Part shown: one piece after another, positions 3,005 to 58,555 of the stretch
How positions within the stretch are numbered: position 1 is the first letter of the stretch
Layout of the letters: the number at the start of each line of letters is the position of its first letter
Program-made: the position numbers and the translations under genes
Assembly (NCBI RefSeq): GCF_003334765.1
Contig: NZ_QOWT01000009.1
DNA length: 64,000 nt
Origin: Escherichia coli
GTDB lineage: Bacteria; Pseudomonadota; Gammaproteobacteria; Enterobacterales; Enterobacteriaceae
Direction: 5' to 3' (one strand)
Notes under the pieces: generated by a model
What the model saw: the letters and a program-made list of their open reading frames with translations, nothing else
Database searches by the model: none
What the model was told of the DNA's origin: nothing

Positions 3005-5827
3005 ATGGATAAGATCGAAGTTCGGGGCGCCCGCACCCATAATCTCAAAAACATCAACCTCGTTATCCCCCGCGACAAGCTCATTGTCGTGACCGGGCTT
3101 TCGGGTTCTGGCAAATCCTCGCTCGCTTTCGACACCTTATATGCCGAAGGGCAGCGCCGTTACGTTGAATCCCTTTCCGCCTACGCGCGGCAGTTTCTGT
3201 CACTGATGGAAAAGCCGGACGTCGATCATATTGAGGGGCTTTCTCCTGCCATCTCAATTGAGCAGAAATCGACGTCTCATAACCCGCGTTCTACGGTGGG
3301 GACAATCACCGAAATCCACGACTATTTGCGTTTGTTATTCGCCCGCGTTGGCGAGCCGCGCTGTCCGGACCACGACGTCCCGCTGGCGGCGCAAACCGTC
3401 AGCCAGATGGTGGATAACGTGCTGTCGCAGCCGGAAGGCAAGCGTCTGATGCTACTCGCGCCAATCATTAAAGAGCGCAAAGGCGAACACACCAAAACGC
3501 TGGAGAACCTGGCAAGCCAGGGCTACATCCGTGCTCGTATTGATGGCGAAGTCTGCGATCTTTCCGATCCGCCAAAACTGGAACTGCAAAAGAAACATAC
3601 CATTGAAGTGGTGGTTGATCGCTTCAAGGTGCGTGACGATCTTACCCAACGTCTTGCCGAGTCATTTGAAACCGCGCTGGAGCTTTCCGGTGGTACCGCG
3701 GTAGTGGCGGATATGGACGACCCGAAAGCGGAAGAGCTGCTGTTCTCCGCCAACTTCGCCTGCCCAATTTGCGGCTACAGTATGCGTGAACTGGAGCCGC
3801 GACTGTTTTCGTTTAACAACCCGGCGGGGGCCTGCCCGACCTGCGACGGCCTTGGCGTACAGCAATATTTCGATCCTGATCGAGTGATCCAGAATCCGGA
3901 ACTGTCGCTGGCTGGTGGTGCGATCCGTGGCTGGGATCGCCGCAACTTCTATTATTTCCAGATGCTGAAATCGCTGGCAGATCACTATAAGTTCGACGTC
4001 GAAGCGCCGTGGGGCAGCCTGAGCGCGAACGTGCATAAAGTGGTGTTGTACGGTTCTGGCAAAGAAAACATTGAATTCAAATACATGAACGATCGTGGCG
4101 ATACCTCCATTCGTCGTCATCCGTTCGAAGGCGTGCTGCATAATATGGAGCGCCGCTATAAAGAGACGGAATCCAGCGCGGTACGCGAAGAATTAGCCAA
4201 GTTTATCAGTAATCGTCCGTGCGCCAGCTGCGAAGGGACGCGTCTGCGTCGGGAAGCGCGCCACGTGTATGTCGAGAATACGCCGCTGCCTGCTATCTCC
4301 GACATGAGCATTGGTCATGCGATGGAATTCTTCAACAATCTCAAACTCGCAGGTCAGCGGGCGAAGATTGCAGAAAAAATCCTTAAAGAGATCGGCGATC
4401 GTCTGAAATTCCTCGTTAACGTCGGCCTGAATTACCTGACGCTTTCCCGCTCGGCAGAAACGCTTTCTGGCGGTGAAGCACAGCGTATCCGTCTGGCGAG
4501 CCAGATTGGTGCGGGCCTGGTTGGCGTTATGTACGTGCTGGACGAGCCGTCTATCGGCCTGCACCAGCGTGATAACGAGCGCCTGTTGGGTACGCTTATC
4601 CATCTGCGCGATCTCGGTAATACCGTGATTGTGGTGGAGCACGACGAAGACGCAATTCGCGCCGCTGACCATGTGATCGACATTGGCCCGGGCGCAGGTG
4701 TTCACGGCGGTGAAGTGGTCGCAGAAGGTCCGCTGGAAGCGATTATGGCGGTGCCGGAGTCGTTGACCGGGCAGTACATGAGCGGCAAACGCAAGATTGA
4801 AGTGCCGAAGAAACGCGTTCCGGCGAATCCGGAAAAAGTGCTGAAGCTGACAGGCGCACGCGGCAACAACCTGAAGGACGTGACGCTGACGCTGCCGGTG
4901 GGTCTGTTTACCTGCATCACCGGGGTTTCAGGTTCCGGTAAATCGACGCTGATTAACGACACACTGTTCCCGATTGCCCAACGCCAGTTGAATGGGGCGA
5001 CCATCGCCGAACCAGCACCGTATCGCGATATTCAGGGGCTGGAGCATTTCGATAAAGTGATCGATATCGACCAAAGCCCAATTGGTCGTACTCCACGTTC
5101 TAACCCGGCGACCTATACCGGCGTGTTTACGCCTGTGCGCGAACTGTTTGCGGGCGTACCGGAATCCCGTGCGCGCGGCTATACGCCGGGACGTTTCAGC
5201 TTTAACGTTCGTGGCGGACGCTGCGAGGCCTGTCAGGGCGATGGCGTGATCAAAGTGGAGATGCACTTCCTGCCGGATATCTACGTGCCGTGCGACCAGT
5301 GCAAAGGTAAACGCTATAACCGTGAAACGCTGGAGATTAAGTACAAAGGCAAAACCATCCACGAAGTGCTGGATATGACCATCGAAGAGGCGCGTGAGTT
5401 CTTTGATGCCGTACCTGCACTGGCGCGTAAGCTGCAAACGTTGATGGACGTTGGCCTGACGTACATTCGACTGGGGCAGTCCGCAACCACCCTTTCAGGC
5501 GGTGAAGCCCAGCGCGTGAAGCTGGCGCGTGAACTGTCAAAACGCGGCACCGGGCAGACGCTGTATATTCTCGACGAGCCGACCACCGGTCTGCACTTCG
5601 CCGATATTCAGCAACTGCTCGACGTACTGCATAAACTGCGCGATCAGGGCAACACCATTGTGGTGATTGAGCACAATCTCGACGTGATCAAAACCGCTGA
5701 CTGGATTGTCGACCTGGGACCAGAAGGCGGCAGTGGTGGCGGCGAGATCCTCGTCTCCGGTACGCCAGAAACCGTCGCGGAGTGCGAAGCATCACACACG
5801 GCACGCTTCCTTAAGCCGATGCTGTAA
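3005..5827 (+). CDS. uvrA: excinuclease ABC subunit A (940 aa)
   Basis: Track ORF 940 aa, [19 protein letters not shown]..., two ABC ATPase modules ([18 protein letters not shown]) and zinc-finger cysteines. Confidence 0.98.
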
Positions 5828-40970: not shown

Positions 40971-41378
40971 AACAATTTCCCTTCATTGAATGAATGGAGA
41001 TTTACCCAAAAACATTTCGGGCGGGATCGAGTATACACAACTAAAGCATGCGAATTACGGCGCGGGGAATTAGCGATGGCGTTTTAGGATAATTGGAATG
41101 AATATCAAATATAAGTTTCAACTTATATTTAAATAACAATAAAAATCATAAACTTAAAATAAAAACAAAAGCAATTAATCTGCGTATTTTCCGAAATAAA
41201 CAACGATTAAAAATCTATTTTAGGATTAACCTCATGGTATGATTTCCGTTAAATCACAGACAAGGGAATTTATCTGATAAAAAAATGCCGACATAACGTC
41301 GGCATTGTTATTAAGGTTATTTAATCAATCGTGCTATGTATTAATTGCCGAATACGATGTACATATCGGCATCGACCT

Positions 41379-41455
41379 GTAGGCCTGATAAGACGCGACC
41401 GCGTCGCATCAGGCATCGGTTGCCGGATGCGGCGTGAACGCCTTATCCGGCCTAC
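41379..41455. repeat. BIME / REP pair between pgi and yjbE
   Basis: gtaggcctgataagacgcgaccgcgtcgcatcaggc ... gccggatgcggcgtgaacgccttatccggcctac. Confidence 0.9.
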
Positions 41456-41468
41456 ATATCGACGATGA

Positions 41469-43118
41469 TTAACCGCGCCACGCTTTATAGCGGTTAATCA
41501 GACCATTGGTCGAGCTATCGTGGCTGCTGATTTCTTTATCATCTTTCAGCTCTGGCAGAATACGGTTCGCCAGCTGTTTACCCAGTTCCACGCCCCACTG
41601 GTCGAAGGTGAAGATGTTCAGGATCACGCCCTGAGTAAAGATTTTGTGCTCATACAGCGCAATCAACGCACCCAGGCTGAACGGAGTGATTTCACGCAGC
41701 AGGATGGAGTTGGTCGGGCGGTTACCTTCGAATACTTTGAACGGCACCACGTAGTCAAGCGTTGCCGGATCTTTACCCTGATCACGATATTCCTGCTCAA
41801 CCACTTCGCGGGATTTACCAAACGCCAGCGCTTCGGTCTGGGCGAAGAAGTTAGACAGCAGTTTCTGGTGATGATCAGAGAGCGGGTTATGGGTGATAGC
41901 CGGAGCGATGAAATCGCACGGTACCATTTTGGTTCCCTGGTGGATCAGCTGGTAGAACGCGTGCTGACCGTTAGTGCCTGGTTCACCCCAGATAATCGGG
42001 CCAGTCTGGTAATCCACAACGTTACCGTTACGGTCAACATACTTACCGTTGGACTCCATATTGCCCTGCTGGAAGTACGCCGCGAAACGGTGCATATACT
42101 GGTCATACGGCAGAATCGCTTCAGTTTCCGCACCAAAGAAATTGTTGTACCAGATGCCAATCAGCGCCAGCAGTACAGGCAGGTTTTTCTCGGCAGGCGT
42201 GGTGGAGAAATGCTTGTCCATCGCGTGTGCGCCGGAAAGCAGTTCAACGAAGTTATCAAAGCCGATGGAGAGAACAATCGACAGGCCAATCGCTGACCAC
42301 AAAGAGTAACGGCCGCCAACCCAGTCCCAGAACTCGAACATGTTGGCAGTATCAATACCAAACTCGCCAACGGCTTTGGCATTGGTGGAAAGCGCCGCAA
42401 AGTGTTTTGCAACGTGTTTTTCATCACCTGCCGCTTTCAGGAACCAGTCACGCGCGCTATGGGCGTTGGTCATAGTTTCCTGAGTGGTGAAGGTTTTAGA
42501 TGCTACCAGGAACAGCGTGGTTTCCGGGTTTACTTTTTTCAGCACTTCCGCGATGTGAGTCCCATCGACGTTAGAAACAAAGTGCATGTTCAGGTGGTTT
42601 TTGTACGGACGCAGAGCTTCGGTCACCATGTATGGGCCGAGGTCAGAACCGCCGATCCCGATGTTCACTACGTCAGTGATTGCTTTGCCGGTATAACCTT
42701 TCCACTCACCGGAAATAATCGCTTCTGAGAAGGTTTTCATCTTCTCCAGCACCGCGTTGACTTCCGGCATTACGTCTTTGCCATCAACCAAAATCGGGGT
42801 ATTGCTACGGTTACGCAGCGCTACGTGCAGCACGGCGCGGTTTTCAGTGCGGTTGATCTTCTCGCCAGAGAACATCGACTTAATCGCGCCCGCCAGATCG
42901 CACTCTTTCGCCAGATCCTGTAATTTCGCCAGCGTCTCTTCAGTGATGCGGTTTTTGGAGTAATCCACCAGCATCTGATCGTCGAAGGTTGCGGAGAACT
43001 TAGAAAAACGATCGCCGTCTTTAGCAAAAAGATCGGCGATCGTAACGTCTTTCATTTCATCGAAGTGTTTCTGTAGTGCCTGCCAGGCAGCGGTCTGCGT
43101 TGGATTGATGTTTTTCAT
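41469..43118 (-). CDS. pgi: glucose-6-phosphate isomerase (549 aa)
   Basis: Track ORF 41469..43124 starts at TTG; ATG at 43118 gives [25 protein letters not shown]... Confidence 0.98.
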
Positions 43119-43301
43119 TAGCAATACTCTTCTGATTTTGAGAATTGTGACTTTGGAAGATTGTAGCGCCAGTCACAGAAAAATGTGATGGTTTTAGTGC
43201 CGTTAGCGTAATGTTGAGTGTAAACCCTTAGCGCAGTGAAGCATTTATTAGCTGAACTACTGACCGCCAGGAGTGGATGAAAAATCCGCATGACCCCATC
43301 G

Positions 43302-43642
43302 TTGACAACCGCCCCGCTCACCCTTTATTTATAAATGTACTACCTGCGCTAGCGCAGGCCAGAAGAGGCGCGTTGCCCAAGTAACGGTGTTGGAGGAGCC
43401 AGTCCTGTGATAACACCTGAGGGGGTGCATCGCCGAGGTGATTGAACGGCTGGCCACGTTCATCATCGGCTACAGGGGCTGAATCCCCTGGGTTGTCACC
43501 AGAAGCGTTCGCAGTCGGGCGTTTCGCAAGTGGTGGAGCACTTCTGGGTGAAAATAGTAGCGAAGTATCGCTCTGCGCCCACCCGTCTTCCGCTCTTCCC
43601 TTGTGCCAAGGCTGAAAATGGATCCCCTGACACGAGGTAGTT
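43302..43642 (+). promoter_or_regulatory. lysC promoter and lysine riboswitch (L-box) leader
   Basis: TTGACA at 43302-43307; long structured 5' leader containing conserved L-box-like segments (GAAGAGGCGCG, GGAGGAGCCAG, GGTGCATCGCCGAGGTG, CTGGGTTGTCACC) ending at the lysC ATG 43643. Confidence 0.85.
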
Positions 43643-44992
43643 ATGTCTGAAATTGTTGTCTCCAAATTTGGCGGTACCAGCGTAGCTGATTTTGACGCCA
43701 TGAACCGCAGCGCTGATATTGTGCTTTCTGATGCCAACGTGCGTTTAGTTGTCCTCTCGGCTTCTGCTGGTATCACTAATCTGCTGGTCGCTTTAGCTGA
43801 AGGACTGGAACCTGGCGAGCGATTCGAAAAACTCGACGCTATCCGCAACATCCAGTTTGCCATTCTGGAACGTCTGCGTTACCCGAACGTTATCCGTGAA
43901 GAGATTGAACGTCTGCTGGAGAACATTACTGTTCTGGCAGAAGCGGCGGCGCTGGCAACGTCTCCGGCGCTGACAGATGAGCTGGTCAGCCACGGCGAGC
44001 TGATGTCGACCCTGCTGTTTGTTGAGATCCTGCGCGAACGCGATGTTCAGGCACAGTGGTTTGATGTACGTAAAGTGATGCGTACCAACGACCGATTTGG
44101 TCGTGCAGAGCCAGATATAGCCGCGCTGGCGGAACTGGCCGCGCTGCAGCTGCTCCCACGTCTCAATGAAGGCTTAGTGATCACCCAGGGATTTATCGGT
44201 AGCGAAAATAAAGGTCGTACAACGACGCTTGGCCGTGGAGGCAGCGATTATACGGCAGCCTTGCTGGCGGAGGCTTTACACGCATCTCGTGTTGATATCT
44301 GGACCGACGTCCCGGGCATCTACACCACCGATCCACGCGTAGTTTCCGCAGCAAAACGCATTGATGAAATCGCGTTTGCCGAAGCGGCAGAGATGGCAAC
44401 TTTTGGTGCAAAAGTACTGCATCCGGCAACGTTGCTACCCGCAGTACGCAGCGATATCCCGGTCTTTGTCGGCTCCAGCAAAGACCCACGCGCAGGTGGT
44501 ACGATGGTGTGCAATAAAACTGAAAATCCGCCGCTGTTCCGCGCTCTGGCGCTTCGTCGCAATCAGACTCTGCTCACTTTGCACAGCCTGAATATGCTGC
44601 ATTCTCGCGGTTTCCTCGCGGAAGTTTTCGGCATCCTCGCGCGGCATAATATTTCGGTAGACTTAATCACCACGTCAGAAGTGAGCGTGGCATTAACCCT
44701 TGATACCACCGGTTCAACCTCCACTGGCGATACGTTGCTGACGCAATCTCTGCTGATGGAGCTTTCCGCACTGTGTCGGGTGGAGGTGGAAGAAGGTCTG
44801 GCGCTGGTCGCGTTGATTGGCAATGACCTGTCAAAAGCCTGCGGCGTTGGCAAAGAGGTATTCGGCGTACTGGAACCGTTCAACATTCGCATGATTTGTT
44901 ATGGCGCATCCAGCCATAACCTGTGCTTCCTGGTGCCCGGCGAAGATGCCGAGCAGGTGGTGCAAAAACTGCATAGTAATTTGTTTGAGTAA
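43643..44992 (+). CDS. lysC: lysine-sensitive aspartokinase III (449 aa)
   Basis: Track ORF 449 aa MSEIVVSKFGGTSVADFDAMNRSADIVLSD... Confidence 0.98.
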   Translation: MSEIVVSKFGGTSVADFDAMNRSADIVLSDANVRLVVLSASAGITNLLVALAEGLEPGERFEKLDAIRNIQFAILERLRYPNVIREEIERLLENITVLAEAAALATSPALTDELVSHGELMSTLLFVEILRERDVQAQWFDVRKVMRTNDRFGRAEPDIAALAELAALQLLPRLNEGLVITQGFIGSENKGRTTTLGRGGSDYTAALLAEALHASRVDIWTDVPGIYTTDPRVVSAAKRIDEIAFAEAAEMATFGAKVLHPATLLPAVRSDIPVFVGSSKDPRAGGTMVCNKTENPPLFRALALRRNQTLLTLHSLNMLHSRGFLAEVFGILARHNISVDLITTSEVSVALTLDTTGSTSTGDTLLTQSLLMELSALCRVEVEEGLALVALIGNDLSKACGVGKEVFGVLEPFNIRMICYGASSHNLCFLVPGEDAEQVVQKLHSNLFE

Positions 44993-45649: not shown

Positions 45650-46522
45650 TCAGCGCCCCTTCTTTTTACGCCCCGGCGAGGTAAAACGCTTACCGTTGGA
45701 CGCCGGGCGACCGCCTTTTTCCGCCGTTTTTTCCATCTTAACGACTGGACGTTTGATGCCCGCTGTTTTCGGTTTGGCCTTCGCTTTAGGTTTTACCTCG
45801 GAAGAGGAATTTTCAATGAGCTTAAAGAGGTCGATTAACTCATCGTCGGTTAAATCGCGCCATTCCCCCAGCGGAATGCCGCTTAAGCTAACGTTCATGA
45901 TGCGCGTGCGTTCCAGCTTTTTCACTTCATAGCCGAAATGCTCGCACATGCGCCGGATCTGACGGTTCAGCCCCTGCACCAGGGTAATGCGGAAGACAAA
46001 CGGCGCTTCTTTTTTAACTTTGCACTTTTTGGTCACTGTCCCGAGGATTGGCACCCCCGCACTCATGCCGCGAATAAACTCCTCGGTAATCGGTTTATCG
46101 ACCGTCACCAGATACTCTTTCTCATGATCATTGCCAGCACGCAGGATCTTATTCACCAGATCGCCGTGATTGGTGAGGAAAATCAGCCCCTGGGAGTCTT
46201 TATCCAGGCGGCCAATCGGGAACACGCGTTTGCTGTGGTTAACGAAATCGACAATGTTATCGCGCTCGCCATCTTCGGTGGTGCTTACAATACCAACGGG
46301 CTTGTTCAGGGCGATAAGTACCAAATCTTCGGCTTCCCGAGGTTCAATCAACTGACCGTTTACTTTCACAACGTCGCCGGGTTTCACCTGATCGCCAATG
46401 GTGGCTCGCTTGCCATTAAGGAACACATTGCCTTGCTCGATATAGCGATCCGCTTCGCGGCGTGAGCAAATTCCGCTTTCGCTGATGTATTTATTTAAAC
46501 GGACTGATGAGTCGGGCAGCAT
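45650..46522 (-). CDS. rluF: 23S rRNA pseudouridine synthase F, RsuA family (290 aa)
   Basis: Track ORF 290 aa [33 protein letters not shown]... (S4 domain), catalytic RLDKDSQGL motif, Lys-rich C-tail. Confidence 0.95.
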
Positions 46523-58298: not shown

Positions 58299-58555
58299 GC
58301 AGAGAATTGCCGGATGCGGCGTAAACGCCTTATCCAGCCTACGTTCGGCAACGGTTGTAGGCATGATAAGACGCGCAAGCGTCGCATCAGGCATCGTGCA
58401 CCGATTGCCGGATGCGGCGTAAATGCCTTATCCGGCCTACGTTCGGCAACGGCTGTAGGCATGATAAGACGCGCAAGCGTCGCATCAGGCATCGTGCACC
58501 GATTGCCGGATGCGGCGTGAACGCCTTATCCGGCCTACAGTCAGCAACGGTTGTT
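58299..58555. repeat. tandem BIME array (about 2.5 copies of a 98-bp unit, each with a REP pair) in the aceA-aceK intergenic region
   Basis: Unit ttgccggatgcggcgtaaacgccttatcc(a/g)gcctacgttcggcaacgg(t/c)tgtaggcatgataagacgcgcaagcgtcgcatcaggcatcgtgcaccga starts at 58307, 58405 and 58503 (third truncated); 3 mismatches between copies 1 and 2. Confidence 0.95.

Follow-up and report, generated by a model that had tools for sequence, protein, structure and literature searches.

The lysC L-box of Bacillus subtilis uses an intrinsic terminator. The lysine riboswitch of Escherichia coli lysC has been characterised by experiment on the same sequence as the one considered here, with direct lysine binding and an accompanying change in expression (PMC10946432 and papers cited there). 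With lysine bound, translation initiation is repressed, RNase E gains access to its sites, and Rho/NusG-dependent termination is promoted at G309; more Rho termination sites lie early in the lysC open reading frame, and when Rho is absent the product is mostly full-length with or without lysine (PMC10946432). [quoted passage not shown] 2012, cited in PMC10946432. The numbering of the riboswitch counts from the transcription start and puts G309 at the AUG (Ghosh et al. 2024, PMC10946432).

We describe here the region upstream of lysC in a 64,000-nucleotide stretch of DNA (the window, meaning the whole of the sequence analysed). The window is E. coli chromosome, with pgi (41469-43118, minus strand) and lysC (plus strand) pointing away from each other across a 524-bp intergenic region, and the element in front of lysC is the well-studied lysine riboswitch of E. 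coli, a textbook cis-regulatory RNA that public genomes already carry as an annotated feature. A megablast search with 43119-43900 finds this segment in all 5426 of 5426 complete E. coli genomes, with an identity of at least 99% in 4971 of the 5426, and the RefSeq features beneath a match read 'lysC: lysine-sensitive aspartokinase 3' and 'riboswitch'. In one record that is 100% identical, RefSeq places the riboswitch at window positions 43355-43551 and lysC at 43643-44992, and the only other RefSeq features around the leader are yjbE, pgi, yjbD, and rluF. We also note that, in the E. coli genome collection, one of the 5429 places matching the pgi-lysC intergenic and leader segment is on a plasmid and not a chromosome.

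The lysC ATG occupies 43643-43645. Because the published G309 is the G of this AUG (PMC10946432), the transcription start corresponds to G43337, and five published positions fit the bases of the window with this assignment. The leader then extends for 306 nt from G43337 to 43642, in good agreement with the untranslated leader of about 300 nt proposed in the initial annotation, and the interval which that annotation had singled out, 43302-43642, proves to run from the first base of the promoter -35 hexamer to the base preceding the lysC ATG, with the aptamer proper forming its inner 197 nt. The promoter, start site, and published positions are as follows.

43302-43307, plus strand: -35 hexamer of the lysC promoter, a perfect TTGACA, read directly and given its role from the distance to the start.
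43326-43331, plus strand: probable -10 hexamer TATTTA, assigned from its spacing to TTGACA and to 43337.
43337, plus strand: transcription start, +1, a G, from the numbering of PMC10946432 with G309 as the G of AUG.
43586-89, plus strand: RNase E Site1, published positions 250-253 (PMC10946432), UCUU.
43643-44992, plus strand: lysC, the regulated gene, encoding lysine-sensitive aspartokinase 3; a 449-aa open reading frame, RefSeq WP_001290310.1.
43645, plus strand: published G309 (PMC10946432), G.
43685, plus strand: published G349 (PMC10946432), G.
43690-93, plus strand: published U354-357 (PMC10946432), TTTT.
43700, plus strand: published A364 (PMC10946432), A.

We infer the lysC promoter from the perfect -35 hexamer together with the literature-derived start site. 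The TATTTA hexamer is separated from the -35 by an 18-bp spacer, lies 5 nt ahead of the start, and matches TATAAT at three of six bases; this weak -10 is the reason why a simple sigma-70 scan missed the promoter of lysC.

A covariance-model scan of the whole window against Rfam 15 at gathering thresholds identifies the aptamer directly; this is the type of check that the initial annotation had proposed, and the threshold is exceeded by far. The lysine riboswitch model RF00168 matches on the plus strand at 99.5 bits, where the gathering score is 30 (E = 3.1e-25), and is covered from position 1 to 182 of 182, untruncated, so that the lysine riboswitch that had been proposed for the lysC leader is recovered at full length, ending 92 nt upstream of the gene and on the same strand. 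Transfer of the Rfam consensus structure places all five helices, P1 to P5, with 47 canonical pairs, and four consensus pairs are non-canonical in E. coli. Compared with the consensus, the P5 loop has an 18-nt 'insertion', which is accounted for by a 10-bp extension of P5.

43355-43551, plus strand: lysine riboswitch aptamer, RF00168 match with a span identical to that of the RefSeq 'riboswitch'.
43360-65/43541-46, plus strand: P1, from the Rfam consensus structure.
43370-78/43425-33, plus strand: P2, from the Rfam consensus structure.
43386-92/43411-17, plus strand: P2b, from the Rfam consensus structure.
43398-43402, plus strand: L2 loop bases GCCAG, kissing-loop partner of L3, from complementarity and covariation.
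43437-48/43457-67, plus strand: P3, from the Rfam consensus structure.
43450-43454, plus strand: L3 loop bases CUGGC, kissing-loop partner of L2, from complementarity and covariation.
43468-78/43485-94, plus strand: P4, from the Rfam consensus structure.
43496-501/43531-36, plus strand: P5, from the Rfam consensus structure.
43502-11/43516-25, plus strand: 10-bp P5 extension, corresponding to the 'insertion' in the P5 loop.

The five-way junction is missing from the unconstrained minimum-energy fold of the 333-nt leader, whose energy is unexceptional (z = -1.65); the structure of the aptamer therefore rests on the covariance model and on covariation. Since the unconstrained fold is uninformative alone, the Rfam structure was imposed as a folding constraint.

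The same Rfam scan reports several other elements in the window. There are five matches to naRNA4 (RF02564) with 67-86 bits, all on the minus strand (27482-27552, 31711-31781, 41382-41452, 58360-58437, and 58458-58535), which we take to be REP/BIME-type intergenic repeats, one of them just downstream of pgi. The enterobacterial sRNA STnc430 (RF02053) is matched at 41167-41316 (+) in the yjbE-pgi intergenic region, with 72 bits against a gathering score of 47. A 5S rRNA gene (RF00001, 90.4 bits) is located at 63817-63932 (-), about 20 kb from lysC, and an rrn operon probably runs off the end of the window there.

Comparative evidence for the aptamer comes from other Enterobacterales. A DNA-pattern scan of species-representative genomes returned at least 120 loci, and among the loci listed 33 Enterobacterales have the element in front of a LysC orthologue with 73-90% identity; the type species of Escherichia, Salmonella, Klebsiella, and Citrobacter are absent among them, and the nearest relatives have LysC proteins that are 88-90% identical. 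A MAFFT alignment of 34 Enterobacterales lysC leaders has standard pairs in 82.6% of cells, compared with 40-48% when the 3' partners are slid by one to three columns, and both sides have changed in 38 of 78 pairs of the aptamer and its flanking hairpins. None of 500 shuffles attains any of the five observed pairing measures. Compensatory changes are found at 6/7 pairs of P2b, at 8/11 of P3, and at 10/10 of the P5 extension (two parts, 5/5 each), and the 34 leaders show no variation in P1, in P4, or in the basal part of P5, which are 100% paired. The five-helix junction, which the initial annotation gave as a structure to look for, can be placed on the sequence from the Rfam helices, and covariation in the orthologues supports it.

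The alignment is out of structural register at L3 and at a hairpin near the 5' end of the leader (46% paired), RNAalifold returns only 4 pairs, and these two elements were instead assessed by folding of individual sequences and by motif tests. In 22 of the 34 leaders the exact reverse complement of the leader's own L2 4-mer is found at position 10-12 of the P3 region, against a chance expectation of about 0.15 per sequence for a match anywhere in the 40 nt searched. Six L2/L3 combinations are represented (GCCA/TGGC, GCCG/CGGC, ACCA/TGGT, ACCG/CGGT, GCCC/GGGC, and TCCG/CGGA), and the kissing loop between L2 and L3 covaries. The core blocks AGAGGCGC, CGCCGAGG, UGUCAC, and GGUGG are invariant in the 34 leaders. 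Because AGAGGCGC, CGCCGAGG, and TGTCAC were the literal pattern with which the loci were sought, the invariance of these first three is circular, and the only independent evidence for the core is the GGUGG block and the match of E. coli itself to the Rfam consensus. Core-block conservation apart, this locus shows each defining feature of the family that is open to in silico testing, and lysine binding is reported in the literature.

Large insertions are observed in the P5 loop of some relatives. In Cedecea sulfonylureivorans (locus L085) the P5 apical loop contains a 104-nt insertion at about 1480-1590, and over positions 1496-1539 of that locus it agrees at 19/22 and 18/22 adjacent positions with what we take to be the ERIC-PCR primer sequences, and the insertion therefore resembles an ERIC repeat placed within the riboswitch loop. 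Pantoea sp. IMH (L007) and Budvicia aquatica (L072) have other large insertions, of about 100 nt, in the same place in P5. The Rfam model scores aptamers with such P5 insertions at 55-70 bits and misplaces their 3' boundary before the true 3' strands of P5 and P1.

Downstream of the aptamer, the expression platform contains two helices that could not form together. When P1 is forbidden in folding, 43529-43550 pairs with 43580-43601, which covers Site1 and the C-rich stretch, and when the platform from 43547 to 43648 is folded alone, CCUUGUG at 43599-605 pairs with CACGAGG at 43631-37. The bases 43599-43601 are common to the anti-P1 and the sequestering helix, and the two are therefore mutually exclusive.

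43529-43550, plus strand: 5' arm of anti-P1 (anti-sequester), comprising the 3' strands of P5 and P1 with GGGUG, from the fold with P1 forbidden.
43555-43575, plus strand: small hairpin between the aptamer and the C-rich region, present in both ON and OFF folds.
43577-43601, plus strand: C-rich, G-poor stretch GCGCCCACCCGUCUUCCGCUCUUCCC, containing the anti-P1 3' arm, rut, and RNase E sites, from mapped positions of PMC10946432.
43599-43605, plus strand: 5' arm CCUUGUG of the helix sequestering the Shine-Dalgarno, from the minimum-energy fold of the isolated platform.
43631-43637, plus strand: 3' arm CACGAGG of the sequestering helix, from the same fold.
43634-43637, plus strand: Shine-Dalgarno GAGG, inside CACGAGG and 5 nt before the ATG.

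In the ON fold the C-rich stretch is base-paired, and enforcing P1 leaves most of it free. Among the 34 leaders about 96% of cells in the anti-P1 sub-helices are paired, with bases that are for the most part invariant or exchanged between G-C and G-U, and the sequestering helix is paired in 97.5% of cells compared with 30-58% when slid, with no compensatory changes. The near absence of compensatory changes in both helices arises because their arms are nearly invariant, and what favours these putative helices is conserved pairing potential together with the literature, rather than covariation. Support for the hairpin at 43555-43575 is weak, with about 62-65% pairing in the MAFFT alignment. We also note that when 30 nt of coding sequence is added to the OFF fold, the Shine-Dalgarno is predicted to pair with early codons and not with CCUUGUG.

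A leader of this kind could be imagined to work as the B. subtilis lysC L-box does, through a lysine-induced intrinsic terminator, and both the aptamer class and the downstream gene family are shared between the two. However, the plus strand from 43337 to 43642 has no G+C-rich hairpin followed by a run of U, and the sole plus-strand terminator-like site of the region scanned is at 43088, upstream of the promoter; moreover, the E. coli platform holds the conserved segment that pairs with the Shine-Dalgarno, and experiments report translational, RNase E, and Rho control (PMC10946432). We rejected a terminator-type L-box for E. coli lysC, as the leader has no terminator-like site on its plus strand, and we consider such a mechanism to be very improbable here. 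To the account in the initial annotation, whose identification of the riboswitch stands, we would accordingly add that the leader has no intrinsic terminator and that control is exerted on translation and through RNase E and Rho.

The lysine-dependent switch we favour would proceed as follows; its core, in which closure of P1 on lysine binding hides the Shine-Dalgarno and opens the C-rich stretch to RNase E and Rho, is the published mechanism. Without lysine, the 3' strands of P5 and P1 (43529-43550) would pair with the C-rich 43580-43601 as anti-P1, leaving the Shine-Dalgarno GAGG (43634-43637) free and the RNase E sites and rut buried, so that lysC would be transcribed and translated. Binding of lysine to the five-helix aptamer (43355-43551) would close P1 (43360-65/43541-46), and this in turn would free CCUUGUG (43599-43605) to pair with CACGAGG (43631-43637), hiding the Shine-Dalgarno. 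With P1 closed the C-rich stretch would also become single-stranded and available to RNase E (Site1, 43586-89) and to Rho, which would terminate transcription at the G of AUG (43645) and at 43685-43700. In this scheme the identity of the aptamer, its helices, the kissing loop, the conservation of the competing helices, and the absence of a terminator are observations of the present analysis, and lysine dependence, RNase E cleavage, and Rho termination are taken from the literature on the same sequence (PMC10946432).

The spacing between riboswitch and gene is disrupted in one strain. In E. coli WB61 (L122, NZ_CP020025.1) an ISEcp1-family transposase unit lies between the riboswitch and lysC (3517-5476) and includes a DUF4942 pseudogene fragment. 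The break falls in the Shine-Dalgarno region, corresponding to about 43635 of the window, and the riboswitch has probably lost control of lysC in WB61.

The leader has one further predicted structure, which lies between the transcription start and P1.

43343-43358, plus strand: 5' hairpin 'P0', 6 bp with a UAGC loop, present in every leader fold and outside the Rfam model.

The arms of this hairpin (43343-48/43353-58) correspond to +7 to +22 of the lysC mRNA, and it stops one base short of P1; the intervening C43359 could pair with G43547. Folding predicts a hairpin of 5-10 bp in 34/34 Enterobacterales leaders, and in 30 of these it ends no more than 2 nt from P1 (CCAGAAG). The 34 leaders contain 30 distinct hairpin sequences, with a median z of -2.8 relative to shuffles, and the retention of pairing as the sequences differ argues for a constraint acting at the RNA level. 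We found no discussion of the 43343-43358 hairpin. The hairpin may be a functional accessory module of enterobacterial lysC riboswitches, and perhaps an uncharacterised one, a suggestion that we offer tentatively and hold to be on the unlikely side. It could, for instance, stack on P1, shield the folding aptamer from the 5' end, or modulate decay that depends on the 5' end.

The leader is also crossed on the opposite strand by a long open frame, which is present exactly as the initial annotation had described it, lying across the leader and the 5' end of lysC.

43318-43863, minus strand: antisense open reading frame of 181 aa with an ATG start, spurious; from the list of open reading frames, with negative coding tests.

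This frame extends across the leader in its entirety and 221 nt into lysC. One reading of it is a real and perhaps young protein-coding gene, specific to Escherichia/Shigella, that overlaps the riboswitch. It does begin with an ATG and stay open for 181 codons, and its exact 181-aa sequence is represented by GenBank 'hypothetical protein' records in an 18-member cluster. These deposits include GCS80402.1 and GDX02895.1 from E. coli, versions of 224-225 aa from Shigella dysenteriae (AHA68367.1 and EFW51573.1), and SYQ84979.1, labelled Klebsiella pneumoniae, and they are a very small number beside the thousands of genomes with this DNA. Against a gene, neither NCBIfam nor Pfam profiles match the 181-aa product (the best Pfam domain has E = 7.6), and RefSeq has no CDS opposite the lysC leader. 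The composition of the product is rich in Ser, Ala, and Pro, which we take to be typical of translated non-coding G+C-rich sequence.

The behaviour of the frame in relatives also argues against a gene. Its ATG is the reverse complement of C-A-T, whose C occupies the wobble position of an Ala codon in lysC, and it is because of this dependence on a synonymous position that the start codon is lost in the nearest genera, the start triplet being ATC, ATT, or ATA in Pseudocitrobacter, Pseudescherichia, 'Escherichia sp. ESNIH1', and Enterobacter sp. BIGb0383. Counted from the lysC ATG, the antisense open interval of E. coli extends from -322 to +236, and in every related genus among the loci listed the intervals are shorter, lie in other frames, and have other ends, such that the E. 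coli interval is fragmented in the nearest genera; actual open intervals were compared here, as counting stops in the equivalent frame is confounded by leader indels. Leader indels with lengths that are not a multiple of three number 3-15 in each near relative. In E. coli and the eight nearest relatives among the loci listed, variable leader columns are distributed evenly over antisense codon positions one, two, and three (37/89, 41/89, and 42/91; chi-square p = 0.87). Frames this long are also common locally, with 14 shadow open reading frames of 153-258 aa in the 64-kb window, mostly inside a longer open reading frame, and two of the 14 lie within 3 kb of 43318-43863.

We therefore attach next to no credence to a protein-coding gene here, and the advice of the initial annotation that the frame should not be annotated as one is borne out by the lack of a family match, codon periodicity, or RefSeq CDS and by the broken frame in relatives. 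The 181-aa open reading frame is open by chance, over a structured RNA rich in G+C and over lysC codons read in antisense. Taking the locus as a whole, it is almost certain that it comprises the lysC promoter and a 306-nt leader containing a lysine riboswitch that acts by the mechanism outlined above, and that the 181-aa frame arose by chance.

The consequence is one of annotation hygiene, as a gene caller that reports the 181-aa antisense frame yields a false protein, and a long structured G+C-rich leader followed by the antisense of a coding region readily gives a long open frame. The concern over mis-annotation that had been raised is real but minor, with few GenBank E. coli or Shigella records listing the exact product. 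The 14 shadow frames of at least 150 aa in the window are candidates for similar mis-annotation, among them one of 258 aa opposite pgi (41520-42296, +) and one of 175 aa opposite rluF (45938-46465, +). The riboswitch finding advances no open biological question, and nothing in it is new.

Comparison with known systems places the element precisely. It is the same element as the E. coli lysC lysine riboswitch (RF00168; PMC10946432), being 100% identical to many E. coli chromosomes, with the same RefSeq coordinates and with all published positions mapping onto it, and we found no difference between the two. With the lysC L-box of Bacillus subtilis it shares the aptamer family, including the five-helix junction and the L2-L3 kissing loop, and an aspartokinase target, but the E. 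coli platform operates through sequestration of the Shine-Dalgarno and exposure of RNase E and Rho sites, without a terminator hairpin. The thiC and ribB riboswitches of E. coli likewise show ligand-dependent exposure of a C-rich rut and termination at a pause near the start codon (PMC10946432), although their ligands and aptamers differ from those of lysC.
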